In this document: positions 4,264-59,173 of the stretch, one piece after another
Position numbering within the stretch: the stretch's first letter is position 1
How the letters are laid out: every line of letters begins with the position of its first letter
Translations under genes and position numbers: made by a program
The notes under the pieces: model-generated
The model's database searches: none
What the model saw: only the letters and a program-made list of their open reading frames with translations
Told to the model about the DNA's origin: nothing
Assembly: GCA_041651055.1 (NCBI GenBank)
Contig: JBAZJW010000001.1
Span: forward strand, 627,521-691,520
Direction: 5' to 3'
Length of the DNA stretch: 64,000 nucleotides
Source of the DNA: Minisyncoccota bacterium
GTDB taxonomy: Bacteria > Patescibacteriota > Minisyncoccia > Phycocordibacterales > UBA5272

Positions 4264-4305
4264 CAGCTTAAAGCTAAAGGCTGGAAGCTAGAAGAAAATA
4301 CAGAG
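4205..4305 (+). repeat. ~100-nt segment identical to 11005-11105 (3' end and 3' flank of two paralogous surface-protein genes)
   Basis: Direct comparison of the two stretches ...ggcatggtctactctttcacacgagaagctatacgagctgaaagctgccagtaacagcttaaagctaaaggctggaagctagaagaaaatacag... Confidence 0.85.
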
Positions 4306-4335
4306 CGACCCCGAAGGGGTCGCTCTCTATTTTGC
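4303..4335 (+). terminator. rho-independent terminator
   Basis: AGAGCGACCCC-GAA-GGGGTCGCTCT hairpin followed by CTATTTTG. Confidence 0.7.
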
Positions 4336-4345
4336 CTTATCCCCA

Positions 4346-4351
4346 TATACT
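4346..4351 (+). promoter_or_regulatory. putative -10 (TATACT) within the conserved tatccccatatactaatcaaa upstream motif
   Basis: Motif shared with 7541-7563 upstream of the paralog at 7602. Confidence 0.3.
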
Positions 4352-4402
4352 AATCAAAAATTAGAAATAAGGAGTTATACTTACTTTATATTCTAATATC
4401 CT

Positions 4403-7400
4403 ATGAAAAAATATATACTACCTGTGCTTTTATTAGCGTTGTCTTTTACAAACGTTCAAGCACAGGCAGTGCCTACAACTTCTTCAAGTTGTACAGATCT
4501 TTCATATAACTTAGGGTATGGGTCTAATGATGGACGCACAAACGGAGAAGTCACCAAGCTTCAGACCTTTTTGAGTTCATTAGGTTACTTAAAAGATAAA
4601 CCTAATGGTTATTTTGGTAGGAGTACTTTTGGGGCTTTAAAAAGTTTTCAATTAAGCAAAGGTTTAACCAATTCTGGATATGCAGGACAGCAAACAAGGG
4701 GTGTGATTAAGAAGATGACGTGTGGTAGTATCCCGACTTCTTCTATGAATTCTTCGGACTTCAAGTTTCCCGATCAAACATCTGTACTAACAAAGTCCAG
4801 TGTGCTTCCCAAACTTGTAGTAAGTGGAACACAATCAAAACCAGGCCTCGTCTTGTGTGGTGATGGTGTAGTGGACAAACCGTCCATAGACGCTGGCCCC
4901 ATTCTCACAAGTTGTTTTCTGGCGAATAAAAATGCCGGAATTATTGAACTTTTACCTGGAAAGTATTATATAAAAAGTACTATTGATATCGGCAATCTTT
5001 CAAACATCACTATTAAAACAAAGGGTGTTTCTTCCGGGTCAGCCTGTTTACAGGTGGGTTCGGCACCATGTGCTGTTCTTTTTGCAACAGCAGATAATAA
5101 AGGGCCTGTGATTTTGAAGAGTGAGGGTGCTTCAAAGCTCAATCTTTTTTATATTGCGATTGATGGAAATCGTCTTGCAAGATGGTCGCCGGGCACTACT
5201 CCTAATTGGATAAAAAATAATGAGACTGATAAATATGGTACAGCTTACAATGCGGCAATTCGTTACTGTGATAAGTGTCATTTTACAGGGTTTGCATCGG
5301 TGCGTGCTCCAAAAGGGACAGGGTTAGAGTTTATCGGTGCTGATGCAGTTTTTGATACCACCTTGTTCAGTGATAATGGTTGGCAGTTGTCAGATTGGTT
5401 TTCGAGCAATCCAGAAGCAGGGGCTTTTGCTGATGGGTTAACAGCTCTTATTTCAGAACGTATTGTTATTCGTAATTCAGAATTTTCTAATAATTCAGAC
5501 ATAAATCTTATCTTGGGGGACGCACCAGGGGCAGTTATTGAGAATAATATAATAAAAAGTGATAATAAGTTTGTTTTTGCGGGACTTATGGTTGATAATT
5601 TTATGCGTATTAACAATGTAATCAAGGGTCGTTTTGACGGTACTGTTATTAGAAATAATACTATCAGTTGTGGTAATGGATTATGTGGAATTGGTATTGA
5701 TGTTGGTCCGTATCTTTGGTATGCAAAAAAAGGAGAAACTAATGTGGATGTTGAACGAGTAACTGGTGGAATAATTGCAAACAATACAGTTTTTGGAGCA
5801 CGTCAAGGTATTTTAGTTTCTGGGGCTTCGGGTACTACAATTAATAATAATACTGTTAATGTTGCTGGTACATTTAAGACACCTGTTGGTCATTATAAGA
5901 AATTGAATGATTATCAAACAAGAGAATGTGTTACAAACAGTATATCTGCTTCTCAAGGCGATACGGTAACTATTTCTGATAATAAAAATAGTCAAGGGCA
6001 AACTGTTGTTACTACTTCGAATGAACTACGTGAATGTCACCCGTATGATCTTTCGGATGCTGTTCTTGATCTTTCTGTTCCTACTATCCCACCAACCCCA
6101 ACAGCTGTAATAACTCCTACCGTCACAGCATCCTGGTCACCTTCTATCATTACATCAGGTCAAGCAGCCACACTCACATGGTCATCAACCAACGCAACCT
6201 ATTGTAATGTTTCTCACCCAAACAACACCAATACTTGGAACAATGCTCCAACGAGTCGCACCACCCCTTACTCAAGTGTTATTACATCAGACACTACAAC
6301 TGTTACGTGTTACAACTCTACAGGGCAGTCGGATTCTAAGACGGTAACATTAACGGTGAATCCGGTTATTCTACCAACCCCAACAGCTGTAATAACTCCT
6401 ACCGTCACAGCATCCTGGTCACCTTCTACCATTACATCAGGTCAAGCAGCCACACTCACATGGTCATCAACCAACGCAACCTATTGTAATGTTTCTCACC
6501 CGAACAATATTAATCCTTGGAACAATGCTCCAACGAGTCGCACCACCCCTTACTCAAGTGTTATTACATCAGACACTACAACCATTACGTGTTACAACCA
6601 AGCAGGGCAGTCGGATTCTGAGACTGTGACGTTGACGGTGAATCAGCCATCTTTTTGTACAGACTTTACATATTCTGATTATAGTCTTTGTCAGTCTGGT
6701 GGTATAAAAACAAGATCAGTTGTGTCTTCTTCTCCACAAGGATGCACTGGAGGGGTCCCTTTAACGTCTATTAGTTGTTCGTATGTTGTCAAGACAACTA
6801 AAGTAAATACTCTCTACAACATTTTTCTCCGCAGAAATTCTGATCCGTCAGGGGAGCTATCGTTTCAGAATCAACTTTCAAAGGGGGCTACTCTTGCTGA
6901 TGTAGCTTGGGTCCTTCTTACCTCTCCAGAAGGAATTGCTACTAACGGAGTCAATGTCCAGACCATGTCTGTTGATTCTTATGTTGAGTTTCTTTACACA
7001 GCAGTTTTGAAGCGTCCTTCAGACGTAGAAGGTAAAAGATATTGGGTTGCTACTGTTAACGCAGGAGTGACGCGTAAGTCAGCCCTTAGTTCTTTTCTTG
7101 ATTCCCCGGAATCAAAAATAACTAACTCAAATCTTTTCCTTTCATATAATTTACAAAATTCTTCATCTATTTCGGTTGACGATAAAAGTATCCCAACTGT
7201 GCTTGGTGATTATATATCCGTACCTTCGTGTATCAATCTTCCACAAAACCTTCATCGCGGAGCAGAATCTTCGTTAGTTAGGCTCCTCCAGTCATTCCTT
7301 ATTGCAAAAGGATTGCTTGCTGGTAATGCAACCGGTTTCTACGGAGACAAAACAGTAGAAGCAGTAAAAGCATATCAGTCTTCTGTGAACCTCCCAGCTA

Positions 7401-7456
7401 CTGGTATGGTGTATGACTTTACTCGTAACGCTATTAAGGTAGAGAGTTGTCAGTAA
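4403..7456 (+). CDS. giant secreted surface protein: PG-binding-like N- and C-terminal domains, right-handed beta-helix (pectate-lyase-like) repeats, two tandem Ig-like repeats, DUF4214-like segment
   Basis: 1017-aa ORF. Signal peptide MKKYILPVLLLALSFTNVQAQA; first ~130 nt nearly identical to 688-820. NN(T/I)I..N/G-rich parallel beta-helix repeats (NNTISCGNGLCGIGIDVG). LYNIFLRRNSDPSGELSFQNQL resembles DUF4214. C-terminal LQSFLIAKGLLAGNATGFYGDKTVEAVKAYQ domain. Confidence 0.85.
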   Translation: MKKYILPVLLLALSFTNVQAQAVPTTSSSCTDLSYNLGYGSNDGRTNGEVTKLQTFLSSLGYLKDKPNGYFGRSTFGALKSFQLSKGLTNSGYAGQQTRGVIKKMTCGSIPTSSMNSSDFKFPDQTSVLTKSSVLPKLVVSGTQSKPGLVLCGDGVVDKPSIDAGPILTSCFLANKNAGIIELLPGKYYIKSTIDIGNLSNITIKTKGVSSGSACLQVGSAPCAVLFATADNKGPVILKSEGASKLNLFYIAIDGNRLARWSPGTTPNWIKNNETDKYGTAYNAAIRYCDKCHFTGFASVRAPKGTGLEFIGADAVFDTTLFSDNGWQLSDWFSSNPEAGAFADGLTALISERIVIRNSEFSNNSDINLILGDAPGAVIENNIIKSDNKFVFAGLMVDNFMRINNVIKGRFDGTVIRNNTISCGNGLCGIGIDVGPYLWYAKKGETNVDVERVTGGIIANNTVFGARQGILVSGASGTTINNNTVNVAGTFKTPVGHYKKLNDYQTRECVTNSISASQGDTVTISDNKNSQGQTVVTTSNELRECHPYDLSDAVLDLSVPTIPPTPTAVITPTVTASWSPSIITSGQAATLTWSSTNATYCNVSHPNNTNTWNNAPTSRTTPYSSVITSDTTTVTCYNSTGQSDSKTVTLTVNPVILPTPTAVITPTVTASWSPSTITSGQAATLTWSSTNATYCNVSHPNNINPWNNAPTSRTTPYSSVITSDTTTITCYNQAGQSDSETVTLTVNQPSFCTDFTYSDYSLCQSGGIKTRSVVSSSPQGCTGGVPLTSISCSYVVKTTKVNTLYNIFLRRNSDPSGELSFQNQLSKGATLADVAWVLLTSPEGIATNGVNVQTMSVDSYVEFLYTAVLKRPSDVEGKRYWVATVNAGVTRKSALSSFLDSPESKITNSNLFLSYNLQNSSSISVDDKSIPTVLGDYISVPSCINLPQNLHRGAESSLVRLLQSFLIAKGLLAGNATGFYGDKTVEAVKAYQSSVNLPATGMVYDFTRNAIKVESCQ
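6092..6655 (+). repeat. tandem duplication of a 282-nt (94-aa) Ig-like domain unit inside the 4403-7456 CDS
   Basis: ccaaccccaacagctgtaataactcctaccgtcacagcatcctggtcacc... occurs at 6092 and again at 6374 with about 95% identity. Confidence 0.9.
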
Positions 7457-7513
7457 TAGGCTGTAGTTAATAGGTTTTGGTTGATGTGATACGAAATACA
7501 GAAAATATGAAAA

Positions 7514-7538
7514 GTGGCCACAAAGTGGCCGCTTTTTG
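7514..7538 (+). terminator. rho-independent terminator
   Basis: GGCCAC-AAA-GTGGCC hairpin followed by GCTTTTTGTG. Confidence 0.55.
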
Positions 7539-7553
7539 TGCCCCTATCCCCAT

Positions 7554-7559
7554 ATAATA
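7554..7559 (+). promoter_or_regulatory. putative -10 (TATAAT) in the conserved tatccccatataataatcaaa motif
   Basis: TATAAT 43 nt upstream of the ATG at 7602; ggaaggggg SD-like at 7573-7581. Confidence 0.35.
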
Positions 7560-7601
7560 ATCAAATAATGAAAGGAAGGGGGTATACTTAACTCATATCC
7601 T

Positions 7602-10600
7602 ATGAAAAAATATATTCTATCCACTCTTTTATTCGCCATATATCTTGGGTTTACAGGGGCTGAAATTGCATCAGCTGTAACGTCTTCTTATTCCATAGCT
7701 CCAGACGTAAACGTACCAGTAGTAACACTCTCTTCAAATGGAAAAAATGTTGTAAATGGTAGCACGGTTTTGATTTCTGATCGTAATGAAGCTACTCTGT
7801 CTTGGACAAGTGTGGGGGCAACGTCGTGTACCTTAAATGGTGTGGCTATACCAACTTCAGGTTCACAGTTATTTAGTAATTTCAAGATTGATTTTGGTTA
7901 TGCTGGTAACATTTTTAGTTGTACAAATGGATTTAAAAGTTCAAGGATACTATTTGACACACTCGGCCGGTCTACTAATGTAGAATCTATAAATATTAGA
8001 GTGATTCCACAATCTACATATGATGTGCGACCAGGAGAACCTGCTCAAATTGCTATCGAGGGTCAGGGTTTTAGCTCATGTACATTAGAATCTGAAGGGG
8101 CTCTTATTAAACTTGTCGAGCCATCAACTAATACAGTACACATAACGCCAGCCCTACAAAAAAATACAACATTCAAAGTTACTTGTACTAGGGGTGAATA
8201 TACTAAAGTTAAGGAGTTTACCATCGAGGTAATTCCAATTAATCCAGTTAAGTCAAAAACTTGCCCATTAGGACAAATCTATTATAGTGCTGAACCGGCC
8301 ATGGTTAATGGTACATATAATAGAGCTTATTTAGGGTGTGCCGAAGCCAAACCTTTTACATGTCTAGATGGATCCACTGTTTACACTAAGATTTTCGATA
8401 AAAGTTCTTCGTTCGCAATAAACGCTCAAGCGTGCTCATATCCAAATGTTACTGACAGTGCTTTATTCGTTAAGGTGGGAGAGGGGGAATATATAGATAG
8501 TCAAACAGAAGGAGTCGCTAATATCACCATTCCTGACAGTGCAAGCGGTAAAATTCTCGTGCTTTATAGTGATAATCCTGTGCATTGGATAATTGCCAAC
8601 CCAAATCATGTTCTCATTAAAAAAATACTTATCTTAGAATTAGAAAGTGGTCTAAATACTCAGCGTGCTGATGGGGATATTCAAAACATACCTCTAGAAA
8701 AGATAAAACTAGGTGGTCGTTTTGGGAATATTACTACTAACTTATTAGGAGGGTTCTATGGGGAGTTATCAGATGAGGTAAATACTTTTTTTAAAAATTC
8801 AGGAAATGATATCAGAGCTCTTATTGTTAGTCTTCTTAAACAAGGTATTTCTTTATCTCCTTACGACTACTATTATGCAAGCAGAGCAAGTGCTTTACCT
8901 GTTGGGGTATCTCCATCACCTACACTGTACACAAAGAAACAGAGTGAAATAGATGCAAAGAAAGCAGAAGAAGATGCAAAGAAAAAAGCAGCAGATGCTG
9001 CAATTGATCGTTTCTGGTTAGGATATAAATTTGCTTCTGGACTTAGTTTTCATAGTTATGTATACGAAAATAAAAATGTTTCAAATGATGCGATATTACA
9101 AAATAGCTATTTTTACTCAGCTGGACCTAGTCCTGTGCCTACGACAAAAGCAGAAGCGATCACTCGATGCAAGGATGACATATTGAGTAAAGTCGGCCAA
9201 GTAGCTCAATGTAAATGGAATGGAGAAGTCTTTGCTTCTTCAACTAATCCTTTACCTATGATGGATAACAAGCTTCTTTTTCCAAGTGGCGCATACAGTG
9301 AATATGATGGGTCTACGCTTATTTACTCTAAGCCTTCAATCTCTGCTATTAATGCAAAAGTTTTCTGTGACATGAGTAAGACCGTCCATCCAAATATTAA
9401 GTGTACTTTTGACGGAATTGATACATCGACACTAGATTTCGCTCGAAAAACTCCTGGATTTTTGCAGATATATGGAGATAGGTTTAGTGGATATTCTAAA
9501 TTTTTTAACTCTTTTGCTACTGGTAATGAAGGGTATAGTGCTGAAAATGACTGTATGCATTACTATACGTATCAGAAGCTTGGCTACATTATGCAAGAAC
9601 CCATTTTTACGGGGAGGTCACCAGAGAAGTACAATATAGAAAACTTTGACAAATCAAAAGCAAATGCTTTAAGAATGGCTTGTTATTGGAATGGACACTA
9701 CTTCTTTTCTTCGCCGGCAAATTACGACCCACTTAATAAACTACCTGAAAGTCTTCCCTCAATATCTTTGCCAGGAACATCATTGTTACGGGAAAGTGCG
9801 CCCTTTGTTGAGGTTAAAGCAAATAAAGGAACAATTCAACTTGGTGAATCTGTGACATTAAACTGGAACAGCATGTACACTGATTCTTGTTCTGCAAGCG
9901 GTGCTTGGAGCGGGGAATTAAGTACTTCTAGCAGTATTCGATCTGGATCTATTACTAAAACCCCAACAGCTCTTGGTGAACAAAAATATATTATTTCTTG
10001 TGCTGGGGTTGGAGGAACAGCAAGACATAGTGTGACTGTGAATGTGATATCTCAAAACGAAGTAAGTTCGTCGAATCAAACGAATACCCTTACACAGAAC
10101 ACTTCTGGTGAACGACTTATCACATCGTTAACTGCAAATCCTTCTACTATTTTTGGAAAAGGTACGACCACAATTACATTTACTTCATCTGGTACGGATT
10201 CTTGCTATATTGGAAATACCCGTTTATCGACTTCGGGAGCATACGTTACTCCTGTGCTTACTTATAATCCATCTTACTCTCCTTCGGTTATTTTTACACT
10301 TAAATGTTTTAAGGGTGAAAGTATGACTTCTAGAAATATATCAATCCTCGTCTCTTCTACTTCTTCTCCTTCTGCTGTATTACCAGCAGGTTGTACTTCT
10401 TCAACAATGTATAGTCCAACGACAGGGGTTCGTTGTCTTGCCACCTTAGCAACTACCCCTGTATGTAACTCAGAGCAGTATCTTGAAAACGGTGTTTGTA
10501 AGAATCTGACTCGTATTTGCCCTGATGGAAGAGTTATATCTGCCATGCTTAGTTGTGGTACATCAACGGTAAGCACTACTGCCACATCAAGTCTTTTGGT

Positions 10601-11063
10601 GTATCGTCAGTATTATGGACCCTCATTACAACAGCAAAGATCAAGAGTAACTAGATCTACAGCTATAAGTCTTTGTGCTGCTCGAGTACGTGCAATACAG
10701 GGACGAAAGACTTCTGGACTTACGACATACAACGATGTATCAAAGATACGATGCACCTGGGGAACAGAACAGCTTTACCCACTCAGGACTTCATCTTTAT
10801 CAGAAGGGTCTCTTGTCCTTGGTTCTTCGACAGTCTGTACCAGCCTCCCATACAACCTTCATCGTGGAGCTGAATCTCCATCAGTAGTTTCTCTTCAGAC
10901 ATTTCTTTCCTCTAAAGGATTCCTAGAAGGAGAAGCTACCGGTTTCTACGGAGACAAAACGGTAGAAGCAGTAAAAGCATATCAATCATCGGTAAATCTC
11001 CCAGCTACAGGAATGGTCTACTCTTTCACACGAGAAGCTATACGAGCTGAAAGCTGCCAGTAA
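7602..11063 (+). CDS. giant secreted surface protein with Ig-like repeats and C-terminal PG-binding-like domain
   Basis: 1153-aa ORF. Signal peptide MKKYILSTLLFAIYLGFTGAEIASA. Several L.W.S....C...G Ig-like units. Last ~75 aa almost identical to the C-terminus of the 688-4263 protein (…GMVYSFTREAIRAESCQ). Confidence 0.85.
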   Translation: MKKYILSTLLFAIYLGFTGAEIASAVTSSYSIAPDVNVPVVTLSSNGKNVVNGSTVLISDRNEATLSWTSVGATSCTLNGVAIPTSGSQLFSNFKIDFGYAGNIFSCTNGFKSSRILFDTLGRSTNVESINIRVIPQSTYDVRPGEPAQIAIEGQGFSSCTLESEGALIKLVEPSTNTVHITPALQKNTTFKVTCTRGEYTKVKEFTIEVIPINPVKSKTCPLGQIYYSAEPAMVNGTYNRAYLGCAEAKPFTCLDGSTVYTKIFDKSSSFAINAQACSYPNVTDSALFVKVGEGEYIDSQTEGVANITIPDSASGKILVLYSDNPVHWIIANPNHVLIKKILILELESGLNTQRADGDIQNIPLEKIKLGGRFGNITTNLLGGFYGELSDEVNTFFKNSGNDIRALIVSLLKQGISLSPYDYYYASRASALPVGVSPSPTLYTKKQSEIDAKKAEEDAKKKAADAAIDRFWLGYKFASGLSFHSYVYENKNVSNDAILQNSYFYSAGPSPVPTTKAEAITRCKDDILSKVGQVAQCKWNGEVFASSTNPLPMMDNKLLFPSGAYSEYDGSTLIYSKPSISAINAKVFCDMSKTVHPNIKCTFDGIDTSTLDFARKTPGFLQIYGDRFSGYSKFFNSFATGNEGYSAENDCMHYYTYQKLGYIMQEPIFTGRSPEKYNIENFDKSKANALRMACYWNGHYFFSSPANYDPLNKLPESLPSISLPGTSLLRESAPFVEVKANKGTIQLGESVTLNWNSMYTDSCSASGAWSGELSTSSSIRSGSITKTPTALGEQKYIISCAGVGGTARHSVTVNVISQNEVSSSNQTNTLTQNTSGERLITSLTANPSTIFGKGTTTITFTSSGTDSCYIGNTRLSTSGAYVTPVLTYNPSYSPSVIFTLKCFKGESMTSRNISILVSSTSSPSAVLPAGCTSSTMYSPTTGVRCLATLATTPVCNSEQYLENGVCKNLTRICPDGRVISAMLSCGTSTVSTTATSSLLVYRQYYGPSLQQQRSRVTRSTAISLCAARVRAIQGRKTSGLTTYNDVSKIRCTWGTEQLYPLRTSSLSEGSLVLGSSTVCTSLPYNLHRGAESPSVVSLQTFLSSKGFLEGEATGFYGDKTVEAVKAYQSSVNLPATGMVYSFTREAIRAESCQ

Positions 11064-21861: not shown

Positions 21862-22422
21862 ATGGCTAAAACAACAGCAATAAAAAGTATTAAAGAAGTA
21901 GAGAAGGAAGCATTCGAAACCCTTGCAAAGGAATTTGGATACAAGAACAAAATGGCTGCACCTCATCTTGTGAAGGTTACTATTTCTGTTGCGACAGGAT
22001 CAGCAATGAAGCGTGACAAGAAGTTCAATGATCTCGTTATGGATCGTCTTATGAAAATCACAGGACAGAAAGCGACTGTACGTAAAGCAAAGATGTCTGT
22101 GGCGTCATTTAAGACACGTGAAGGGGATCCAATCGGTGTCGCAGTAACACTTCGTGGTGCTCGTATGTTCGGATTCTTGGACAAGGTATTAAATGTATCA
22201 CTTCCACGTACAAAGGACTTCCGTGGTCTCAACCGTACATCGGTGGACGCTATTGGAAACATGACATTCGGTATCAAGGAACACACTATTTTCCCAGAAA
22301 TTCACGATGAAGAATTGAAGGATGTGTTCGGTATGGCTATTACAATGGGGACGACAGCTAAGACAAAAGAAGAGGCGACTAAGTTTTTCGAATTGATCGG
22401 CATCCCTTTCAAGAAACAATAA
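21862..22422 (+). CDS. rplE: 50S ribosomal protein L5
   Basis: ...GFKNKMAAPHLVKVTISV...DFRGL...GIKEHTIFPEI. Confidence 0.95.
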   Translation: MAKTTAIKSIKEVEKEAFETLAKEFGYKNKMAAPHLVKVTISVATGSAMKRDKKFNDLVMDRLMKITGQKATVRKAKMSVASFKTREGDPIGVAVTLRGARMFGFLDKVLNVSLPRTKDFRGLNRTSVDAIGNMTFGIKEHTIFPEIHDEELKDVFGMAITMGTTAKTKEEATKFFELIGIPFKKQ

Positions 22423-22423
22423 T

Positions 22424-22500
22424 TTACTTCATCTACTTCGTTGTAAAAGATTTTTTCTCCACGCAACGTACTATTCGTACGTCTTGGTCGAATTCTGACT
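22424..22500 (+). repeat. copy A of a ~90-nt hairpin repeat family (CTTCATCTACTTCGTTGT...CGTACTATTCGTACG...)
   Basis: Shares an exact 17-mer TTACTTCATCTACTT(C/T)GT and the core CGTACTAT-TGTACG with copy D inside the 23S gene; homologous to copies at 28588, 33602 and 59003. Confidence 0.7.
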
Positions 22501-22533
22501 TTTTAACAAGAAGTTCTAATAATCAGAATGAAC

Positions 22534-30870: not shown

Positions 30871-33591
30871 ATGAACACTCCGTTTACTACCCCCGAAGAA
30901 GAAATCAGTTTTCTTCGCTCACAAATTAAAGATAAAGTAGAAAAGGCAAAAGGCTTCGAAGGTCGCTTCACCGAGAAAGATCATGCACACGAAGTGGTAC
31001 GTGATTATCGCGAACTTCCTTTAGAAAAAGTAGTGGCACCGATAGCACAGGTTACAGCAGGTGAAACACATCGACTTCTCGAATGGCTCACTCCGCGAGA
31101 TACGGATGCGCAAGTACAAATGCTTTCACAGGTTATGGCAGACAAAGGAATAAAGAATGCATTTGTTATGGCAGAAAAGATGAATGATCCGCAGCTCGAA
31201 GATGACTTCGAGCGCTTTGTTGTGCAGTATCTTGTTTCAGGACATGAAATAAGAAACAATCTTTCCAAAGATGTATGGAAAGCTCTTCATATGAAGTTGT
31301 TTGAAATTGTGCTTCCAGATGCACAAGAAGGGCAAGGAAAACAGGCCAAAGAAATGATGGCGCTAATGGAACAATGGTATGCCTCGATGCAAGCGCTTGC
31401 GAGTGATGTGCTCAACAAAGAGAAGAATTATTATTCACTAGAGCTTGCGGTGGCGAATGGTTCCACGACAGCATCATTTTATTGTGCGGTGCATATCGAT
31501 TACGCGGCACTGTTTGAAAAGGTGGTACTCGGTGTATTTCCACAGGCCCAAGTCAGAGAACAGAAAGATGACTATAATATTTTCCATGCTCATGCGATCA
31601 CAGCAGCATCATACGCGACACATAGCACGCATCCGGCACTTCCTATCAAGACCTATGAGACCATGGAGGCTGATCCGATGGCACTTATCATTTCTTCCTT
31701 CACACGAATTGTAAAAGAAAATGAAGGACTTGCTCTCCAGGTGTTGGTGCGTCCAGCGGGGGATGTTTTCGCGAAGCGTTTTGGTGAAATGTTGGAAGAC
31801 TTACGTAAAGGGGAAACGCTCAAGCGTGTACTCGACAAGCAAAGCATACTTAAAGAGTCTCTCCATATTCTTGGTTTGATGTTTGAATCAACGAAAACAA
31901 AAGAAGAGATTGAAAAGAAAAAAGCAGAAGGAACGACCTTCGTGGATGAAAGCGCCCTCAAGCATGTACAAACAAAACTTTCAAAGACAATCATCGAAAC
32001 AAATATTCGTATTGTTGCTTCGGCGACGAGTTTGGTGCGGGCACAAGCGATACGCACCGATCTCGAGGCTGCTTTCTCACAGTTCACAGAAGTCGGAGGA
32101 AACAGCGTCATCTGGAAAGAAGTAGAGGGGCGTAAGCAGAAGGCGATGCTTCACCGCTTTTCATATCGTTTATGGAATGAAGACGAAAGTTATCCACTTA
32201 ACCTTGCTGAAATTGCTTCTGTTTTTCATTTCCCTTCACAGTCAAAAGATGTGGCCAATGTTCGTTCTTCCTCAGCCGCTACTGCACAAGCTCCATCTGA
32301 TATGCCTGCCGATGGAATTGTTCTCGGAATCAATAAATCCAGAGGTCAAGAACAAACTATACATTTTGGACGTGAAGATCGTATGCGTCACATGTATGTT
32401 ATCGGTCAGACGGGTACAGGAAAGACCGTGTTCATGAAGAATTTGATTATTCAGGATATAAAAAACGGCGACGGTTGTTGTTTCATTGACCCGCACGGAA
32501 ATGATATCCAAGATATTTTGGCGAACATTCCTCCAGAACGAGCGCAAGACGTTATTTATTTTGACCCAGCATATATGGCACGTCCAATGGGGCTCAACAT
32601 GCTTGAGTATGATAGGAATTACCCAGAACAAAAGACATTCGTCGTGAATGAACTCTTGGGAATATTCGATAAGCTGTTCGACATGCGAGCAACAGGGGGA
32701 CCAGGATTCGAGCAGTACTTTCGTAACGCGACATTACTCGTGATGGAGCATCCTGAAAGTGGTAACACGCTCCTTGATATTTCTCGTGTCTTTTCAGATA
32801 AAGATTATCGTGACTACAAACTTTCGAAATGTAAGAATCCACTCCTTGTACAGTTTTGGCAAAATGCAGAGAAGACAACAGGTGATCAAGGGCTTCAAAA
32901 TTGGACTCAGTACGTAAATAGTAAATTTGATGTCTTTATGTCAAACGACATTATGCGGCCAATTATTGCTCAAGAAAAGAGCGCCTTTAATTTCCGCGAC
33001 ATAATGGATAGTAAGAAAATCTTTTTGGTGAATCTTTCAAAGGGTCGTCTCGGGGATAAGAATGCAAGTTTACTCGGTCTTATTATTGTGGGAAAGTTTT
33101 CACAGGCAGCCCTCTCTCGCGTGGATATGTTCGGGAAACCGATGAATGATTTTTATTTGTACATTGATGAATTCCACAACGTCACCACAAACGCAATCGC
33201 CACCATTCTCTCTGAAGCCAGAAAATATCGTCTCTCACTTACTATCGCGCATCAGTACATTGGACAGTTGGAAGAAAGTATTAAGGGAGCAGTGTTTGGT
33301 AACGTGGGTACTATGGCTATATTCCGTGTTGGAACAGATGATGCGAAGTATTTGGAAACACAGTTTACGCCAACATTCACGTCAAACGATATTATGAAAA
33401 TAGAAAACTACCATGCGTATCTCAAGATGCTTGTCCGAGGTGAACCAAAAAAGCCTTTTGATATTGTCGCCCTTCCACCCCAAATAGGGGATGTATCACG
33501 TATCGATTCATTGAAAGAGTTGAGTTATTTGACGTACGGGCGACCGGCGGAAGAAGTTAACTCAGAGATTATGAAAAAATACTCTCTTTAA
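30871..33591 (+). CDS. large P-loop NTPase of the TraD/TraG/VirD4-HerA-FtsK-like superfamily with a ~480-aa N-terminal domain of unknown function
   Basis: Walker A MYVIGQTGTGKTVFMKN; Walker B LYIDEFHN; ARKYRLSLTIAHQYIGQL motif typical of TraG-D_C / HerA-like ATPases; no N-terminal TM segments. Confidence 0.6.
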   Translation: MNTPFTTPEEEISFLRSQIKDKVEKAKGFEGRFTEKDHAHEVVRDYRELPLEKVVAPIAQVTAGETHRLLEWLTPRDTDAQVQMLSQVMADKGIKNAFVMAEKMNDPQLEDDFERFVVQYLVSGHEIRNNLSKDVWKALHMKLFEIVLPDAQEGQGKQAKEMMALMEQWYASMQALASDVLNKEKNYYSLELAVANGSTTASFYCAVHIDYAALFEKVVLGVFPQAQVREQKDDYNIFHAHAITAASYATHSTHPALPIKTYETMEADPMALIISSFTRIVKENEGLALQVLVRPAGDVFAKRFGEMLEDLRKGETLKRVLDKQSILKESLHILGLMFESTKTKEEIEKKKAEGTTFVDESALKHVQTKLSKTIIETNIRIVASATSLVRAQAIRTDLEAAFSQFTEVGGNSVIWKEVEGRKQKAMLHRFSYRLWNEDESYPLNLAEIASVFHFPSQSKDVANVRSSSAATAQAPSDMPADGIVLGINKSRGQEQTIHFGREDRMRHMYVIGQTGTGKTVFMKNLIIQDIKNGDGCCFIDPHGNDIQDILANIPPERAQDVIYFDPAYMARPMGLNMLEYDRNYPEQKTFVVNELLGIFDKLFDMRATGGPGFEQYFRNATLLVMEHPESGNTLLDISRVFSDKDYRDYKLSKCKNPLLVQFWQNAEKTTGDQGLQNWTQYVNSKFDVFMSNDIMRPIIAQEKSAFNFRDIMDSKKIFLVNLSKGRLGDKNASLLGLIIVGKFSQAALSRVDMFGKPMNDFYLYIDEFHNVTTNAIATILSEARKYRLSLTIAHQYIGQLEESIKGAVFGNVGTMAIFRVGTDDAKYLETQFTPTFTSNDIMKIENYHAYLKMLVRGEPKKPFDIVALPPQIGDVSRIDSLKELSYLTYGRPAEEVNSEIMKKYSL

Positions 33592-33601
33592 GTCATAAAT
33601 C

Positions 33602-33705
33602 ACTTCACCCGCTTTGTTGTGAAAGATTTTTTCTCCCGCAATGTACTATTCGTACATTTTGGTCGTAAAAATCTTTCACGCCTCGCGCTTGAAGCAATTT
33701 CTGAC
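33602..33705 (+). repeat. copy B of the ~90-nt hairpin repeat family
   Basis: GCTTTGTTGTGAAAGATTTTTTctcccgcaatGTACTATTCGTACattttggtcgtAAAAATCTTTCAC: 13-bp outer stem plus conserved inner hairpin. Confidence 0.7.
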
Positions 33706-33740
33706 TTAAAGTAACCTCGTCTGATTGAAATAAGTATTCA

Positions 33741-33872
33741 CATACTCCTCACCTAACCCTTTATGTCAACTCTCGCAGGCCGACGGGCCGAGAGTGAACT
33801 GCTTTTTCAGCAGAAAAAGACAGTGTTTGATATAAAGGGTTGAGGTGAAAAAAGAGAAGAAATTTTGAATCT
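33741..33872 (+). ncRNA. copy 1 of a ~130-170-nt multi-stem repeat; candidate structured RNA
   Basis: CATACTCCTCACCTAACCCTTTATGTCAA ... internal hairpin CTCTCGCAGGCCGACGGGCCGAGAG ... CTGCTTTTTCAGCAG ... TTTGATATAAAGGGTTGAGGTGA closes a ~23-bp long-range stem; near-identical copy at 40563. Confidence 0.5.
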
Positions 33873-33948
33873 GGAAAAAGAAATTTGTAATTAAGCCCCC
33901 GTATTCACTACCCAGCATGCAATACCTGCTATATACTAAATAGTAATT

Positions 33949-34122
33949 ATGGATGCTGCTTTAATTATTTTAGCCCTCACTCTCATTGCCTACGTACCCC
34001 TCGCAGCCGTTTTACTTTTCGTGTGGTGGAAGTACGGTCAAGGTGAAGTGAAAGTTTCTATTGCTCGTGTGACGTTTCTCGCAGGATCATTTGCGTTAAT
34101 CGGTTACATGCTCATGCTATGA
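33949..34122 (+). CDS. small membrane protein (57 aa; YdbS-like partner?), overlaps the next gene by ATGA
   Basis: MDAALIILALTLIAYVPLAAVLLFVWWKYGQGEVKVSIARVTFLAGSFALIGYMLML; not in the ORF track (<60 aa); 4-nt overlap with the 34119 start. Confidence 0.5.
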   Translation: MDAALIILALTLIAYVPLAAVLLFVWWKYGQGEVKVSIARVTFLAGSFALIGYMLML

Positions 34123-34664
34123 CATTTGAACAAGAACACATGCTCGAAGAAGGAGAGGTGATACTCGAAAAAGTCCGTAAGCACTGGATTGTGTATGTGA
34201 ATGATTTTCTTATTCATTTTTTTGGATGTGCTATTTTTAGTATCGCAGCGATGTATTTGTCTTCAAAGGGTTCGCTTGTCTTTATTAGTACTTCGACGGG
34301 TTCTTATGGAGCGATGATTCTCATTATGTTCGTGCTCATTTTCTGGACAAGTTTTTTCTTCACATGGACGAAGAATTTTTTTGATGTTTGGTATGTAACG
34401 AATCAGCACATTATCGCTATTAATCAGAAGCAGATTTTGGAAAGAGAAGATGCTCATATGGAATTAAATCGCATTCAAGATATTTCTTTTGAAAAGAATG
34501 GATTTTTACAGACCATGCTCGGATATGGTGCACTTAAGGTTCAGAGTGCTGGGGCAGAGGTTGAATTCACCATAGAAGACGTGCGTGATGTAGAAGGCTC
34601 GGCTCATCGTATTATGGAATTGCGAGATGAAGCACAGAAACAGGTTACAGGTGATAGTTTATAG
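34119..34664 (+). CDS. membrane protein with bacterial PH domain (bPH_2 / YdbT-like)
   Basis: N-terminal two TM helices, then a ~100-aa segment ...VTNQHIIAINQKQILEREDAHMELNRIQDISFEKNGFLQTMLGYGALKVQSAG... resembling DUF304/bPH_2. Confidence 0.55.
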   Translation: MTFEQEHMLEEGEVILEKVRKHWIVYVNDFLIHFFGCAIFSIAAMYLSSKGSLVFISTSTGSYGAMILIMFVLIFWTSFFFTWTKNFFDVWYVTNQHIIAINQKQILEREDAHMELNRIQDISFEKNGFLQTMLGYGALKVQSAGAEVEFTIEDVRDVEGSAHRIMELRDEAQKQVTGDSL

Positions 34665-34670
34665 ACTACA

Positions 34671-34755
34671 GCAATACAAAAGCACGACACCTTCGGTGTC
34701 GTGCTTTTGTATTGCTGTTCAGATTCGGTGTCGTGCTTTTGTATTGCTGTTCAGA
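34671..34755. terminator. bidirectional terminator (21-bp perfect stem) between the bPH gene (+) and efp (-), with a 32-nt tandem duplication of its 3' arm
   Basis: gcaatacaaaagcacgacacc-ttcg-ggtgtcgtgcttttgtattgc; ttcggtgtcgtgcttttgtattgctgttcaga repeated at 34692-34723 and 34724-34755. Confidence 0.7.
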
Positions 34756-34924
34756 AAAATCAAGAAACTGTTTCAGCTACGAGGAGCCTAGAAATTTTTC
34801 AAAGAAGTCGTACACGCTAGTACGGCGACTGCGAAAAATTTCGTAGTTCGAGACGGCTTGGCCGCGAAGATATCATAAGCTAACAAGCTTGTGACAAAAA
34901 GTAGATGGAATAGTTTATTGGTTT

Positions 34925-37404: not shown

Positions 37405-37539
37405 AGTGATTATAGTATAGCAAGAATAGTTGAAAAGTCCGTAAAGTGGAAAGTCCGTAAAGGGGAACGCGTGACACCGAAGGTGTCACGCGTTCCGTAC
37501 CAGAAACTCCTTTTGACTTTCAACTTTATGGACTTTTGA

Positions 37540-40305: not shown

Positions 40306-40562
40306 AACAAGTAAAGGGGATTATGGTGTAAAGTATAGCAAAAGAAGGATTCTAAGATAAGGTATAACTCTATCTGTTGCTTTGACAAAAGCTTCTTCTT
40401 TAATTCTGACCCCTAACTCTTTTACTTTTTTCTTTTTCAAGTAACCCCTAAAACCAAACGATGTATTTTCTTGCTAGAAAATCATCTCACGCTCGCGCCG
40501 CCGCGCTGTGCGAGTTGGTTTGTAGGGGTTACTTGAGGATAGTGAATACGGATACGCATCCC

Positions 40563-40710
40563 CATACTCCTCACCTAACCCTTTATATCAACTCTCGGAA
40601 GACGGCGGTCTGAGAGTGAACTGCTTTTTCAGCAGAAAAAGACAGTGTTTGATATAAAGGGTTGAGGTGAAAAAGAAAAAAGAAACCTTGAATTTTATTC
40701 AAATCTGACT
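40563..40710 (+). ncRNA. copy 2 of the ~130-170-nt multi-stem repeat; candidate structured RNA
   Basis: CATACTCCTCACCTAACCCTTTATATCAACTCTCGGAAGACGGCGGTCTGAGAGTGAACTGCTTTTTCAGCAGAAAAAGACAGTGTTTGATATAAAGGGTTGAGGTGA: same outer sequence as 33741-33872, with the internal hairpin changed in a compensatory way. Confidence 0.5.
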
Positions 40711-50441: not shown

Positions 50442-51228
50442 GTGAATCACTGCTTGATGATAAAAAACGAAACTATAACCAACTAACCCGGAGGCCAAGT
50501 AACGTTTCGTTACTAGCCGCCGATAAGGCGGATTTTATTTTCTCAAAATTGTTAAGCAGATTGCAGTTCTCTGACAACAGAATCCCGTGCACAACACGCG
50601 CAACAGTACTGTTATCCAGTAGTAGAATTTGATTCACTGGGGTCTAGCGGAGTTTGTGACACGGACACATGAAAAAAGACAATACATGTAGAGAGCGGAG
50701 CGGTCCAATCTCTACAGTGATAGTTATGTTTCCTAATAGGAACATAAGAGCACACGGTGGATGCCTAGGCTCTAAAGAGCGATGAAAGACGTTGTCAGGC
50801 TGCGATAAGTTTCGGGGAGGCGCCTAACAGCCCGCGATCCGGAAATTTCTGAATGAGGAAACTCAATGCGAGTAATGTTGCATTGTCATAGCAAGCATTT
50901 GCATGACGCTCACCCAGGGAAGTGAAACATCTCAGTACCTGGAGGAAAAGAAAATAAAAATTATTCTGCAAGTAGCGGCGAGCGAAAACAGAGAAGCCCA
51001 AACCGACAGTAGTAATACTGTGCGGGGTAGTAAGATAGAAACGTAGTTTACTAGAAGAGTTACAAAAGGTATGTATAGATAAAGTTGTTGGAAAGCAACG
51101 CCAAAGAAAGTGATAGCCTTGTTATCGAAATGCATACCCCTCTTTTGTTTCTAATCTTGAGTAATTCGAGACACGAATAGCTCGGATGAATCAACCGGAA
51201 CTAACCGGTAAGGCTAAATATCTTTAGA

Positions 51229-51274
<46 letters not shown>

Positions 51275-52690
51275 GGAAGGGGAGTGAAATAGAACTGAAA
51301 CCGTGTGTTTACAAGGAGTAGAAGAGGGCGCATCACACTGTGTGTGATGCCTTTAAACATTTAAATATTTAAATGTGCATCACGCTTAGCGTGATGCGTC
51401 CTCGACTGCGTGCCTATTGAAGAATGAGCCAACGAGTTATAGGTTACTGCAGGCTAAGTGGTATAAAGTCACGGAGCCATAGCGAAAGCAAGTGTGAATA
51501 GCGCGAACAAATTGTAGTAGCTTATAGACCCGAAGCCGAGTGAGCTTACCATGAGCAGGGTGAAGTTTATCGAAAGGTAAATGGAGGCCCGAACCAGTAG
51601 GTTGTACGACTCCTTTGGATGACTTGTGGTAAGGAGTGAAAAGCTAATCGAACTCGGTAATAGCTGGTTCTCTCCGAAATAGTTTTTGGACTAGCGTCGC
51701 GTGTTCCCTTTGGGGGTAGAGCACTGGAAGGTTTTGACTAGTAGCAATACGGCAACACCTATCAAACTCCGAATACCAAAGGTTAAAAATGCGGCAGTAA
51801 GACCACGGGGGCGAAGCTCCGTCGGTCAAAAGGGAAACAGCCCAGATCTCAAGTTAAGGCCCCAAAGTATATATTAAGTGTAAGCGAGGAGGTGGAGTTT
51901 CATTGACAATGAGGATGTTGGCTTAGAAGCAGCCATCATTGAAAGAAAGCGTAACAGCTCACCCATCGAGAGACTCTGCGCCACAAATAATCGGGACTCA
52001 AATATATCGCCGAAACTGAGGGCTTCATTGGTGTCACAACCATTGGAGCGGTAGGAGAGTGTTCCACTCTGCGTTGAAGCTAAAGGGGTAACCCATAGTG
52101 GAGCGTGTGGAAGTACGAATGTTGGCACAAGTAACCGCAATGGGGGTGAGATCCCCCCACGCCGAAAGAATAAGGTTTCCTATTCAATGATTGTCAGAGT
52201 AGGGTTAGTCGGGCCTAAGGAGATGGCGAATGCCGGATCCGATGGACATAATGTTAATATTCATTAACTCGGTACTAATGTGATGGGATGACGGAGTGTA
52301 GTATATAGAGCGACTTATTGGATTGTCGTTTATTGCGTAAGGGTGAGGTACAGGGAAATCCGTACTTCTGGTTTTAATGCCGACTCCAAGCGTTGTATGA
52401 AGATGATGGGCAACCTGATTCAACTCTATAAAGCACGCTTCCGAGAAAAGTCTCTACATCTGATGCATATCAGACGTGCGCATCGCAGAGCGATGCTTGA
52501 AATTTAAATATGTAAATATTTAAATTTCACATCACTAGGTGATGTGCATGCTTAAGTTAGTATTGATCCGTACCGCAAACCGACACAGGTATTCAGGTCG
52601 AGTAGACCAAGGCGAACGAGTGATATCTCCCTAAGGAACTAGGCAAAAAAGCGGCCGTAAGTTAGCGATAAGGCCTGCCCTCACCACTTT

Positions 52691-53143
52691 GCGTTTAAAG
52701 TCGCAGTGACAAAATTACTTCATCTACTTTGTCGCAGCATCGTTTTTGTCAGTCGCCGTACTATATGTACGACTTCTTCCAAAAGCTCGCTGCTTCTCGT
52801 AGCTAAAGCAATTTTCTCACTGCTTGCAAAAGTGGAGAGTTCTAGGAAATTAGATAAAATATTGAGACAAATCGTAATTACAGTAGAGCTACTGTAATTA
52901 CAAAAACATGTGTAATACGTAAGTAATTGTGGATTTCGTGAAGGAAATGTATGGACCGCGGTAGGTCTGCATCGAGATTTAAGAATCCGATGTGGTGGTG
53001 GCGTTCGACTCGCTATTATTTCATACGTGGACTTCCGGGAAGGTGACTTCCCGTCTTTCACGAAATTCATAATTACAAACTAATTACATACAAAATAGTG
53101 TGATGGAAATCAGTTTCCTCGAGCTCTTCATTACTTTGAAAAT
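52691..53143 (+). other. ~453-nt insertion at the tip of 23S helix 63 (IVS/expansion; non-coding)
   Basis: Flanking stem ctgccctcaccacttt (52675-52690) pairs with aaagtggtgggggc (53144-53157). E. coli has ~40 nt here. No credible ORF. Contains copy D of the 90-nt hairpin repeat. Confidence 0.7.
52715..52820 (+). repeat. copy D of the ~90-nt hairpin repeat family, embedded in the 23S helix-63 insertion
   Basis: TTACTTCATCTACTTTGTCGCAGCATCGTTTTtgtcagtcgCCGTACTATATGTACGACttcttccAAAAGCTCGCTGC... Confidence 0.65.
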
Positions 53144-53303
53144 AAAGTGGTGGGGGCCGCAGCGAAAGTTTCCCTAGCGACTGTTTACCAAAAACACAGC
53201 TTCCTGCGAACACGTAAGTGGATGTATAGGAGGTGACGCCTGACCAATGCGGGAAGGTTAAATATCGGTGGTAATTTATTGCTGGATGATATAAGCCCCC
53301 GTC

Positions 53304-53536
<233 letters not shown>

Positions 53537-54201
53537 AGCGAAATTCCTTGTCTGGTAAGTTCAGACGTGCACGAATGGCGTAACGACTGGGGAACTGTCT
53601 CAGGGAGTAGCTCGGTGAAAATACAGTACCGGTGAAGATGCCGGTTACCCGCAGATAGACGAAAAGACCCCGTGAGCTTTACTCTAGCTTGATATTGAGT
53701 ATGTTCAATTACTGCGTAGCATAGTGACGAGAGGTTTGATGTGTATGGTTTCGGCTGTACTCTACTCGACAGTGAAATAGTCATCTGTAATTGGGCATAC
53801 TCTAACGTGAACGGAAAAAACGTTCGCAGACAGTATCTGGTGGGGAGTTTAACTGGGGCGGTTTCCTCCTAAAAGGTAACGGAGGAGTTTATTAAGGTCA
53901 TCTAGGCGCGAATGGAAACCGTGCCGATAGCGTAAGGGCATAAGATGGCTTGACTGTAAGACGGGCATGTCGAGCAGACACGAAAGTGGGACCTAGTGAA
54001 CCTACACTACGCTTTAGACGCGGGTGCAGATTAACGGATAGAAGCTACCACGGGGATAACAGGCTAGTTGTGCCCAAGAGTTCATATCGACGGCACAGTT
54101 CGGCACCTCGATGTCGGCTCATCTTATCCTGGTGGTGGAGAAGCTACCAAGGGTATGGCTGTTCGCCATTTAAAAAGATACGTGAGCTGGGTTCAAACCG
54201 T

Positions 54202-54683
54202 GGAGGAGTGAATTATACAGAACGATTACTAACGTTATTTTCTCAAATAACATCAGTTAGCAATCAATTCAGTTTTGTATAATTGACTTCTCCTAGTTTG
54301 AACCCGAGGAGTTAAGACTAAACTTAACAAAAAGACATTAATCACGGCGGCATATATCAGTAATGGTATATGGCAAGCCAACTAATATCGGAAGAATCTT
54401 ACTCGAGCAATCGAAAGACAATTCCGAGGGAAGTATTATAGATTTTTTTGGTGAGGGGAGATTGGAATATGAGTGGATCCTCTGCGCGAGCAGTCAGGGT
54501 AACCTCGACCATAACTAATGGTCCTTCCTACCTTTCCTCACCTCTCCTAAAGAATCTAGAATACACCCGTAGAGACTATACGTTGGCAGTCTTGTTAAAA
54601 ACAAGATGAAGCTCTAGTCCGATCCCTTTAGAAATAAAGGTTCTCATGGTTTGGAAACCACAATGAGATGTAAAACACTAATG
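54202..54683 (+). other. 482-nt insertion in 23S domain V near E. coli position ~2590-2595 (GAACGU^CGUGAGACAG); putative ORF-less group I intron
   Basis: Removing 54202-54683 restores gttcaaaccgt|cgtgagacaggttggt. 5' exon ends in U, insert ends in G. No ORF inside. Confidence 0.55.
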
Positions 54684-54736
54684 CGTGAGACAGGTTGGTT
54701 TCCTATCTTCTGCGGGCGTTCGAATATTGAAAAGAT

Positions 54737-54767
<31 letters not shown>

Positions 54768-55208
54768 TGACCTCTGGTGTGTGGGCTCTGACGCCAGTCG
54801 GAGCGCCCAGTAGCTATGTCGGGAATGGATAACTTCTGAAAGCATCTAAGAAGGAAGCCAACTTTAAGATAAGTATTCGTTGAAGGGTCGTAAGAGATTA
54901 TTACGTTGATAGGAGCTAGGTGTACGCACAGTAATGTGTTTAGCCAAGGCTTACTAATTACCCGAATCCTATTAGGAAACATGACTAGCACAAAAGGCTA
55001 GTTAGCGTATGGAGCACTAGTTGTCTACTAGAAAGTTTCATACTGTATTGTCTTTCATGTGGTGTGTGGAGGTTGCATGTTCTTACATTAATACTTCGGT
55101 ATTAATATAAGTCACGTGACTTCCACACACCACAGGAAAGAGTTCTTTTTTCATGTGTTTGATTCTGTATGGCTTGTAAAAGCGATACAAATAACTTGAA
55201 TGGTATAT

Positions 55209-55314
55209 GGAACCGTAGCTCAGCTGGTAGAGCCCTAAACTAGTCTTGAATAAAGATGAGTTTCTTGGGATTCTTAATCCAGGTGCGCAAGTTCGAATCT
55301 TGCCGGTTCTGCCA
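55209..55314 (+). tRNA. tRNA-like gene between 23S and 5S with ~30 extra nt in the anticodon/variable region (anticodon unresolved; possible short intervening sequence or class-II-like arm); CCA encoded
   Basis: GGAACCG-TA-GCTCAGCTGGTAGAGC (acceptor + D arm) ... GCAAGTTCGAATCTTGC (T arm) ... CGGTTCT-G-CCA. The 50 nt between the D and T arms cannot be folded into a canonical 17-nt anticodon arm. Confidence 0.5.
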
Positions 55315-59002: not shown

Positions 59003-59123
59003 ACTACTTCGTTGTGAAGAATTTTTGTGTTTCTGCGCTTGCTAGCTATGGAACTCTTCGAAGCCGAGCTTCTCGACATGCGCCGTACTATGTGTACGAC
59101 TTAGTCGAAAAAAACTTCACGCC
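59003..59123 (+). repeat. copy C of the ~90-nt hairpin repeat family (longer variant)
   Basis: CTACTTCGTTGTGAAGAATTTTTgtgtttc...GCGCCGTACTATGTGTACGACttagtcgAAAAAAACTTCACGCC. Confidence 0.65.
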
Positions 59124-59173
59124 TTGTATTCATCTCAATTTTACTCGAGGCCAAATACCTGTATACTTCAAAT

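Follow-up and report, generated by a model that had tools for sequence, protein, structure and literature searches.

A low-copy, Y-shaped intergenic repeat in a lineage of Candidatus Paceibacterota that resembles MITE-, REP- and ERIC-type elements

Introduction

MITEs, ERIC/IRU, the Correia elements of Neisseria, RUP and BOX of the pneumococcus, and YPAL are repeats of 100-170 nt that lack coding capacity. Their long terminal inverted repeats pair into a stable stem, which is sometimes branched, and they are intergenic, often lying near promoters or within transcripts, present in some relatives and absent from others, and divided into subfamilies of different ages. The element described here is like them in all of these respects. 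REPs are simple hairpins of 20-40 nt with a 5' GTAG that occur in tens to hundreds of copies, and RAYTs are IS200/IS605-like Y1 transposases. With REP/REPIN-RAYT systems the element shares a strand-specific folded palindrome with a short conserved motif 5' of the stem, the arrangement of copies as inverted doublets (here w3/w2), compensatory changes in the stem and an apparent absence of target duplications. Like integron attC sites, which are imperfect palindromes of 57-141 nt, it is conserved in structure more than in sequence, is folded on one strand and carries a bulged base. Finally, it has the Y shape and the ~100-120 nt size of several three-way junctions in Rfam, namely the hammerhead, purine-type riboswitches, 5S rRNA and TD-1.

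The tiny genomes of CPR/Patescibacteria are densely packed with genes and are considered to contain few repeats and few known non-coding RNAs; our literature searches for MITEs or structured repeats in CPR yielded nothing relevant. We analysed a 64,000-nt stretch of one such genome (the window), in which an earlier note, made from the sequence, had described a two-copy, multi-stem element as a candidate non-coding RNA or cis-regulator.

Copies of the element

Both copies that had been reported were present at the places given for them, and were 89-91% identical over about 123-135 nt (110/123 in one comparison). A central 28-mer occurred exactly twice, against 0.00 occurrences expected from shuffles. 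The position of the first copy (w1) held, but the end assigned to the second (w2), 40710, overshoots, because similarity between the two fades after ~33866 / 40689. The two copies were real, but a third, w3, had been missed. It was found with a covariance model built from w1, w2 and a copy in a related genome (model R1; match at 40429-40549 on the minus strand, 95.6 bits, E 1e-24), scored 118.5 bits with a second model, R2, in cmsearch, and is 68-69% identical to w1 and w2. It stands head-to-head with w2 across a gap of 6 nt, and is directed at ftsK. The whole units in the window are as follows.

33734-33866, plus strand: w1, with the same fold as w2
40556-40689, plus strand: w2, with 5' motif 40556-40570, core 40571-40670 and tail 40671-40689
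40403-40549, minus strand: w3, with 5' motif 40549-40537, core 40536-40437 and A-rich tail 40436-40403

The three copies lie within 7 kb, and none was present elsewhere in ~88 kb of the same contig. A covariance-model search of the window without filters added no copy, and a model search of ~24 kb of additional sequence from the contig found none. Only one borderline match was obtained, at 34654-34758 with 18 bits; it proved to be a bidirectional terminator, half of which is duplicated, and does not belong to the family. This terminator separates the bPH gene from efp (34668-34755), and the duplication of its 3' half forms a perfect 32-nt tandem repeat at 34692-34755. A contig from an independent assembly of the same organism (Logan SRR8542065, our L002) begins inside w3, with its positions 1-28 covering model positions 95-123; an assembly break at this place is as expected for an element that is repeated or palindromic in that data set.

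Two further copies were found outside the window. One lies in the spacer between prfA and rpsB of a related Paceibacterota MAG (L037), and the other, the most distant member found, was identified with the covariance model at 5239-5359 on the minus strand of another such MAG, L065. The family thus comprises five copies at four loci in three genomes, in ~210 kb of covered DNA from the clade. Pairwise identity across the copies ranges from 48 to 89%, with the structure conserved throughout. The core is ~100 nt long; once the conserved 5' motif and the A-rich 3' tail are counted, the whole unit comes to ~125-145 nt.

We then searched more widely. An exact scan for the two arms across 185,579 species-representative genomes returned 46 loci, and one of these was homologous inside, namely the L037 copy. 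The other 45 had an unrelated interior, and their number is near that estimated by chance for a 20-base pattern. A hairpin-2 pattern search of JGI metagenomes returned only the L037 contig itself, and collections of viral contigs, phage and plasmids held no match to the element. With Rfam 15, a search that the earlier note had proposed, no copy matched a family at the gathering threshold, and the only matches in the whole window were to rRNA and tRNA. Permissive Rfam scans over w1, w2/w3 and the L037 and L065 copies gave chance-level matches only. The best of these, TD-1, reached 28.6 bits against a gathering threshold of 64.5, but what aligned was no more than a generic A/U stem enclosing an insertion of 53 nt; a plastid 3'UTR hairpin likewise aligned as a generic stem only. 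As nothing described matched it in sequence or by model, and no account of such repeats in CPR was found, the family is by these searches an apparently undescribed one.

Fold and covariation

In RNA folding, w1 and w2 formed the same three-way junction (-52.9 and -49.1 kcal/mol, z ~ -6), and all five copies gave this junction in independent single-sequence folds. The parts of w1, from 5' to 3', are listed below.

33734-33748, plus strand: 5' flank motif GTATTCACATACTCC, kept in 5/5 members in the covariance-model alignments
33749-33768, plus strand: 5' arm of the closing stem (TCACCTAACCCTTTATGTCA), supported by folding and by double changes in 12/20 pairs of this helix (helix 1) across the family
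33769-33795, plus strand: hairpin 1, with base ACUCUC/GAGAGU, a 3-nt internal loop GCA, a 4-bp apex GGCC/GGCC and loop GACG
33798-33824, plus strand: hairpin 2, with an AGCA loop that is invariant in 5/5 copies
33828-33848, plus strand: 3' arm of the closing stem (TGATATAAAGGGTT-G-AGGTGA, with a bulged G), supported by folding and covariation
33849-33866, plus strand: purine/A-rich 3' tail (AAAAAGAGAAGAAATTTT), followed by a TTGAAT box; likeness to w2 fades after ~33868

The long-range closing stem that the earlier note had proposed is real, and consists of 20 bp and one bulged G (33749-33768 paired with 33828-33848). An inner hairpin that varies between the copies while keeping its pairing had also been described correctly, since the apex of hairpin 1 reads GGCC/GGCC in w1 and AGAC/GUCU in w2. 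The pairing suggested for the second hairpin (CTGCT-TTTTC-AGCAG), in contrast, was supported neither by folding nor by compensatory changes, both of which point to ACUGCUUUUUC-AGCA-GAAAAAG(A)CAGU at 33798-33824. In w1, hairpins 1 and 2 are separated by 2 nt, and 3 nt follow hairpin 2; across the element the junction strands are 0-1 nt, GA/UGA and GUU.

Outside the stems, conservation was seen in the 5' motif, whose family form is GTATTCAC/A..TA.YCC (also written GTATTCAC(A)TA(CT)CC), in the loop of hairpin 1 (GACG in w1, GRCG across the family), in the AGCA loop, in the GUU(U) junction and in the 3' tail AAAAAGARAAG... The 4-bp apex of hairpin 1 is hypervariable. In all five copies the arms of the closing stem are 20-bp terminal inverted repeats, as in MITEs, and conserved sequence reaches beyond these arms. 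There is no conserved ORF in the element; a 26-codon ORF in w1 was rejected as coding, its ATG start codon reading ATA in w2.

A comparison of w1 and w2 showed that only 1 of 84 core positions outside the hairpin-1 apex differs, against 8 of 36 in the flanks (p = 2.5e-4 vs core) and 6 of 16 in the apex itself (p = 4e-5 vs core). Such a pattern would fit a core that is either freshly copied or strongly constrained, with the apex as a hot spot.

In the five-sequence alignment, 94.6% of pair cells were standard pairs, and both sides had changed in 25 of 41 pairs. Hairpin 2 (helix 4) showed double changes in 7 of its 11 pairs with 100% of cells paired. No shuffle equalled the real alignment, and structures slid by 1-3 columns retained only 40-52% pairing with 1-4 doubly changed pairs. 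Fitting the five copies to the model favours the structure in such an alignment, and the single-sequence folds agree with it independently. Paired changes can also arise in DNA palindromes by template switching, in which no selection on RNA is needed, and covariation alone therefore does not identify the molecule under selection.

The two strands were not equivalent. The modelled strand was the more stable in 5/5 copies with DNA parameters and in 4/5 with RNA parameters, the largest gap being that of the L065 copy (-48.9 vs -35.8 kcal/mol with RNA parameters). The better fold of this strand is due to its non-Watson-Crick pairs, which are G-U (or G-T) there; helices 1 and 4 contain 8 G-U cells, as against 3 non-standard cells, all at the end of helix 1 in L037. 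This bias shows one strand to be the relevant one, and both RNA and single-stranded DNA are compatible with it.

These features bear on two alternatives to a mobile-type repeat. The element may be a small structured RNA, either a multi-copy sRNA gene or a module of read-through RNA, whose junction and loops would be bound by a protein or another RNA. Strong covariation in all helices, the invariant loops, the G-U pairs of the modelled strand and the favoured sense fold are what such an RNA would display. It could also act at the level of DNA, as a cruciform or a folded single-stranded site for recombination or binding that marks the insertion points of accessory DNA, in the manner of attC, the folded attP of CTX phage or the single-strand origins of plasmids. 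The strand preference in every copy with DNA parameters, and the retention of structure over far greater divergence of sequence, are consistent with a site of this kind.

Gene neighbours and promoters

The gene context had been described correctly, with the exception that the 290-aa protein, called DeoR-HTH in the earlier note, has only sub-threshold HTH matches. The next gene is that of a 57-aa small membrane protein, followed by the bPH protein gene, for w1, the 290-aa HTH-like gene for w2, ftsK for w3 and rpsB for the L037 copy. These four copies lie 100-240 nt before a start codon and in the orientation of the gene, whereas the L065 copy runs antisense to the genes on either side; co-orientation in 4/5 copies is not significant. 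Features of the flanking DNA are listed below.

33595-33715, plus strand: copy of the D7/D10 repeat, a long hairpin with core GTACTATTCGTAC, directly upstream of w1
33901-33913, plus strand: solitary 5' motif (GTATTCACTACCC), 52 nt past the w1 core
33927-33935, plus strand: extended -10-like box TGCTATATA, past w1 and ahead of the 57-aa gene, whose ATG is at 33949
40332-40340, minus strand: extended -10 box of ftsK, TGCTATACT, conserved in the relative L050 and located between w3 and the ftsK start codon
40770-40797, plus strand: TTTACA-16-TAGAAT, promoter of the 290-aa gene, 100 nt downstream of w2; the block around it is conserved in L050

The box before the 57-aa gene is the same TGCTATA box as in the ftsK and recA promoters, and relatives are without the spacer at that place. 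Downstream of the L037 copy lies the rpsB promoter (TTCCCA...TGnTAnAAT) with a strongly conserved leader. Since conserved promoters are found downstream of the copies, the copies are positioned upstream of promoters and not inside conserved 5'UTRs.

This arrangement bears on the view, raised in the earlier note, that the element is a 5' leader (riboswitch-like or an attenuator) controlling each downstream gene. The distance and orientation of w1, w2, w3 and the L037 copy relative to start codons are what such a leader would require. The conserved promoters of the 290-aa gene, ftsK and rpsB, however, stand between element and gene, the downstream genes are unrelated in function, and the junctions of 0-3 nt leave little space for a ligand pocket. 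Together with the reversed orientation of the L065 copy and the orthologous genes that lack the element in relatives (see below), these observations argue against a gene-specific regulator in the 5'UTR; this explanation is largely refuted and we regard it as very improbable.

Scans for promoters and terminators detected no site inside or abutting any copy in the window, and the stem is followed by an A-run and not a U-run. A hand search recognised -35-like TTGACA/TTGATA boxes in the arms with no matching -10. These results, and the head-to-head abutment of w2 and w3, which leaves no space for upstream promoters, speak against an independent sRNA gene, as does the antisense position of the L065 copy. 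A small structured RNA is nevertheless favoured by the co-orientation of 4/5 copies with the downstream gene and by the setting of w1, which is predicted to be transcribed, probably, because it lies between co-directional genes with no predicted terminator.

Some further observations concern these genes and their promoters. Identical extended -10 boxes occur at 37414-37422 (minus), 40332-40340 (minus, TGCTATACT) and 33927-33935 (plus, TGCTATATA), and the gap from box to start codon is 9 nt for recA, 13-14 nt for the 57-aa gene and 26 nt for ftsK. Gaps of 9 nt (recA) and 13 nt (57-aa gene), with no Shine-Dalgarno sequence, suggest that these two mRNAs may be leaderless or near-leaderless. The gene before w1 (30871-33591) encodes a 906-aa protein that weakly matches domains of type IV secretion coupling proteins and of HerA/FtsK-like ATPases, and DUF8128 in relatives. 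With these weak matches, both element loci of the window adjoin DNA-translocase-like genes, which may be a coincidence. The rpsB leader of ~130 nt is almost invariant among relatives (L037 3925-4045; L052 17075-17200; L054, L065, L064 and L057), reading ATCCAATCGGGCAAATCAGGATTTGGACACCTGAGCA...GGAGAAGAG...TGTGGCACGA, whereas other intergenic DNA of the same relatives does not align. A permissive Rfam scan of this leader gave no match, and we consider it a candidate S2 autoregulatory leader in the lineage.

Presence and absence in relatives

Gene order around both loci of the window is preserved in two relatives, L050 (FtsK 86% identical) and L051 (FtsK 78% identical). The spacer that contains w1, between the 906-aa and 57-aa genes, measures 357 nt in the window and only 4 nt in L050 and 1 nt in L051. 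The spacer missing in these relatives is made up of the D7/D10 copy, w1 and the promoter box together. Between ftsK and the 290-aa gene, the window has 607 nt as against 323 and 316 nt in L050 and L051, which are ~300 nt shorter; only two promoter blocks of this spacer are conserved, and neither relative gave a model match to the element there. Absence from relatives had been named in the earlier note as evidence against its proposal, and at the syntenic sites of L050 and L051 the element is indeed absent.

A similar picture was obtained at the L037 locus. The genome of L037 is closely related to that of the window (RpsB 83%, PrfA 87% identical), where the prfA-rpsB spacer holds a DUF6498 gene and no copy. 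Five relatives whose RpsB is 88-91% identical to that of L037 (L054, L064, L065, L068 and L070) also have no copy at this place, and hold instead nothing, a 104-aa gene or a HigB-like toxin pair. The L065 copy adjoins an extra 210-aa gene that is absent from relatives. Thus, among the loci examined, every one that bears a copy is empty in at least two relatives. Copies lie in otherwise dispensable DNA upstream of promoters or at hot spots for accessory genes, and are tied to no gene family.

The prfA-rpsB spacer is itself a hot spot for accessory DNA (L052 16347-17290, L064 958-1565, L068 1478-2347, L037 3466-4062), and contains, depending on the relative, a DUF6498 membrane-protein gene, the 104-aa gene, a HigB-like toxin-antitoxin pair, the Y-shaped element or nothing. 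The D7/D10 family, a copy of which precedes w1, forms a long hairpin in which the core CGTACTATnyGTACG is invariant and the flanks covary, and occurs at 22419-22510, 33595-33715, 52710-52800 and 59069-59150. Copies follow rplE, the 906-aa gene and ftsW, each beginning right at the stop codon, and another is located within the 23S insertion described below.

Absence from syntenic sites in close relatives also weighs against a small structured RNA. The same reading gains from the core being nearly identical in two genomes whose proteins are only 83-87% identical. On balance, we regard it as the main rival explanation, if a rather unlikely one.

We also looked for signs of how copies were inserted. 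No direct repeat abuts the stem in the copies that could represent a target-site duplication, and the empty sites are too diverged to fix boundaries. In every copy the stem is bordered by identical sequences (..YCC and AAAAAG..), which therefore do not mark the true ends of the element. A near-identical solitary GTATTCACTAYCC motif is present upstream of ftsK in L050, which is free of the element there; this motif, and that at 33901, may mark a favoured target, be left over from a core since deleted, belong to native upstream DNA or match by chance. A candidate target motif would place insertion 3' of TATTCACTAYCC. Around w1, w2 and the L037 copy there are recurring motifs that resemble GTATTC, spaced by 136-167 nt, and the downstream one in L037 overlaps the native -35 region of rpsB that is present in empty sites.

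The solitary 5' motifs at 33901 and in L050, and the location of copies at accessory hot spots (the prfA-rpsB spacer, and the L065 copy abutting its extra gene), could be accommodated by a site at which accessory DNA is inserted. Against such a DNA-level site, no integrase, recombinase or cassette array was seen, core genes keep a conserved order between w1 and w3, the copies do not share the RYYYAAC/GTTRRRY core sites of attC, and no direct-repeat core flanks all of them. We consider this alternative improbable.

Other features of the window

The match to 23S rRNA at 50734-54976 spans 4243 nt against a 2925-nt model, indicating ~1.3 kb of extra sequence in the gene, possibly an intron or intervening sequence. 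Such insertions are common in 23S genes of CPR. The ORFs within it (52720-53784, minus; 53950-54282, plus) had no Pfam match. Between the 23S and 5S genes, at 55209-55311, Rfam identified a tRNA of 103 nt against a 71-nt model, and ARAGORN found no tRNA in the whole window; this tRNA may carry an insertion or intron. Strong terminator-like hairpins (AAAGAGCGGCCAC..GTGGCCGCTCTTT) of 41 nt each, with covarying stem centres, occur at 572, 4294, 7503, 11109, 24071, 27209, 30787 and 47784. Three tandem paralogous genes at 688-11063 encode giant proteins of 1017-1191 aa with PG_binding_1 domains, and share repeated blocks upstream and downstream (D1, D4, D8, D9 and D12).

Discussion

Our analysis identifies a genuine, structured, multi-stem non-coding element with strong compensatory variation and no Rfam match, as had been proposed in the earlier note; the cis-regulatory role proposed with it is not supported, given the absence of the element from syntenic sites and the position of promoters. 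The coming and going of copies among the genes of relatives makes a structured mobile-type repeat more likely than a switch for the neighbouring genes. We therefore read the element, with a probability of roughly 0.55, as a new structured intergenic repeat akin to MITE/REP/ERIC elements, which has few copies, is polymorphic for insertion and folds on one strand, either as single-stranded DNA or as RNA. The family was found in a few related genomes of one lineage of Candidatus Paceibacterota (CPR), and is new as a family and known in kind.

As in MITEs, its copies are dispersed, non-coding and polymorphic for insertion. Unlike the families of this type, as judged from their descriptions, it has no sequence similarity to them, has very few copies, and has neither a TA or other target duplication nor a parent IS that we could find. 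Two internal hairpins with invariant loops and a hypervariable 4-bp apex, and a CPR host, also set it apart. It differs from REPs in being a 100-nt three-way junction that carries a 5' GTATTCAC motif and occurs only three times in 88 kb; we saw no RAYT gene in the DNA covered, and membership in the REP/REPIN-RAYT class was rejected because the element is not a short, simple GTAG palindrome at high copy.

Other known systems were considered and set aside. The ACCTAAC of w1 and w2 fits the RYYYAAC of attC, but the core sites are unconserved in w3 (AAGTAAC), L037 (AACTAAC) and L065, and with no conserved RYYYAAC/GTTRRRY, no integrase or cassette array, and housekeeping genes in conserved synteny, the copies are not attC sites. 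A hammerhead is rejected, as the CUGANGA/GAAA core is missing, the junctions are 0-3 nt and Rfam gave no match. A retron msr/msd would have a reverse-transcriptase gene downstream, and the genes found there are the 57-aa and bPH genes, the HTH-like gene, ftsK and rpsB. The defining features of dif/KOPS are likewise lacking.

As a mobile-type repeat, the element would propagate in the way of MITEs, REPs or ERIC-type elements, by spreading or being copied, and would probably pass through a single-stranded form whose fold and loops a trans-acting enzyme recognises. Any effects on neighbours would then be by-products and not dedicated regulation; when transcribed through, it might provide a substrate of the RNase III type or a barrier, or it might simply displace upstream DNA from promoters. 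Several observations sit less easily with a repeat of this kind. The copy number is low, with 5 copies in ~210 kb of clade DNA, and the conserved loops, the strand-specific fold and the co-orientation of 4/5 copies exceed what an inverted repeat recognised by a transposase would need, and would also fit a functional RNA. No transposase or recombinase was present among the genes called in ~88 kb of the window's contig, and this, with the lack of a clear target-site duplication, keeps a small structured RNA a live rival.

A more speculative proposal, which we hold to be unlikely, is that the Y-shaped module is the recognition unit of an undescribed CPR system, either a trans-acting or processed RNA or the folded single-stranded DNA substrate of a new recombinase or transposase. 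If the former were true, the RNA would have a cellular role in trans or after processing; if the latter, accessory DNA would be seeded upstream of the promoters of core genes.

For annotation, the element is a warning that multi-stem, covarying elements should not be called riboswitches or leaders from sequence alone. The covariance model is ready for use in finding a possible mobilising enzyme or RNA-binding partner in the lineage, and the element can serve as a marker of recent genome change among close relatives. The family shows that CPR genomes carry and tolerate structured DNA, selfish or regulatory, upstream of core promoters such as those of ftsK and rpsB.
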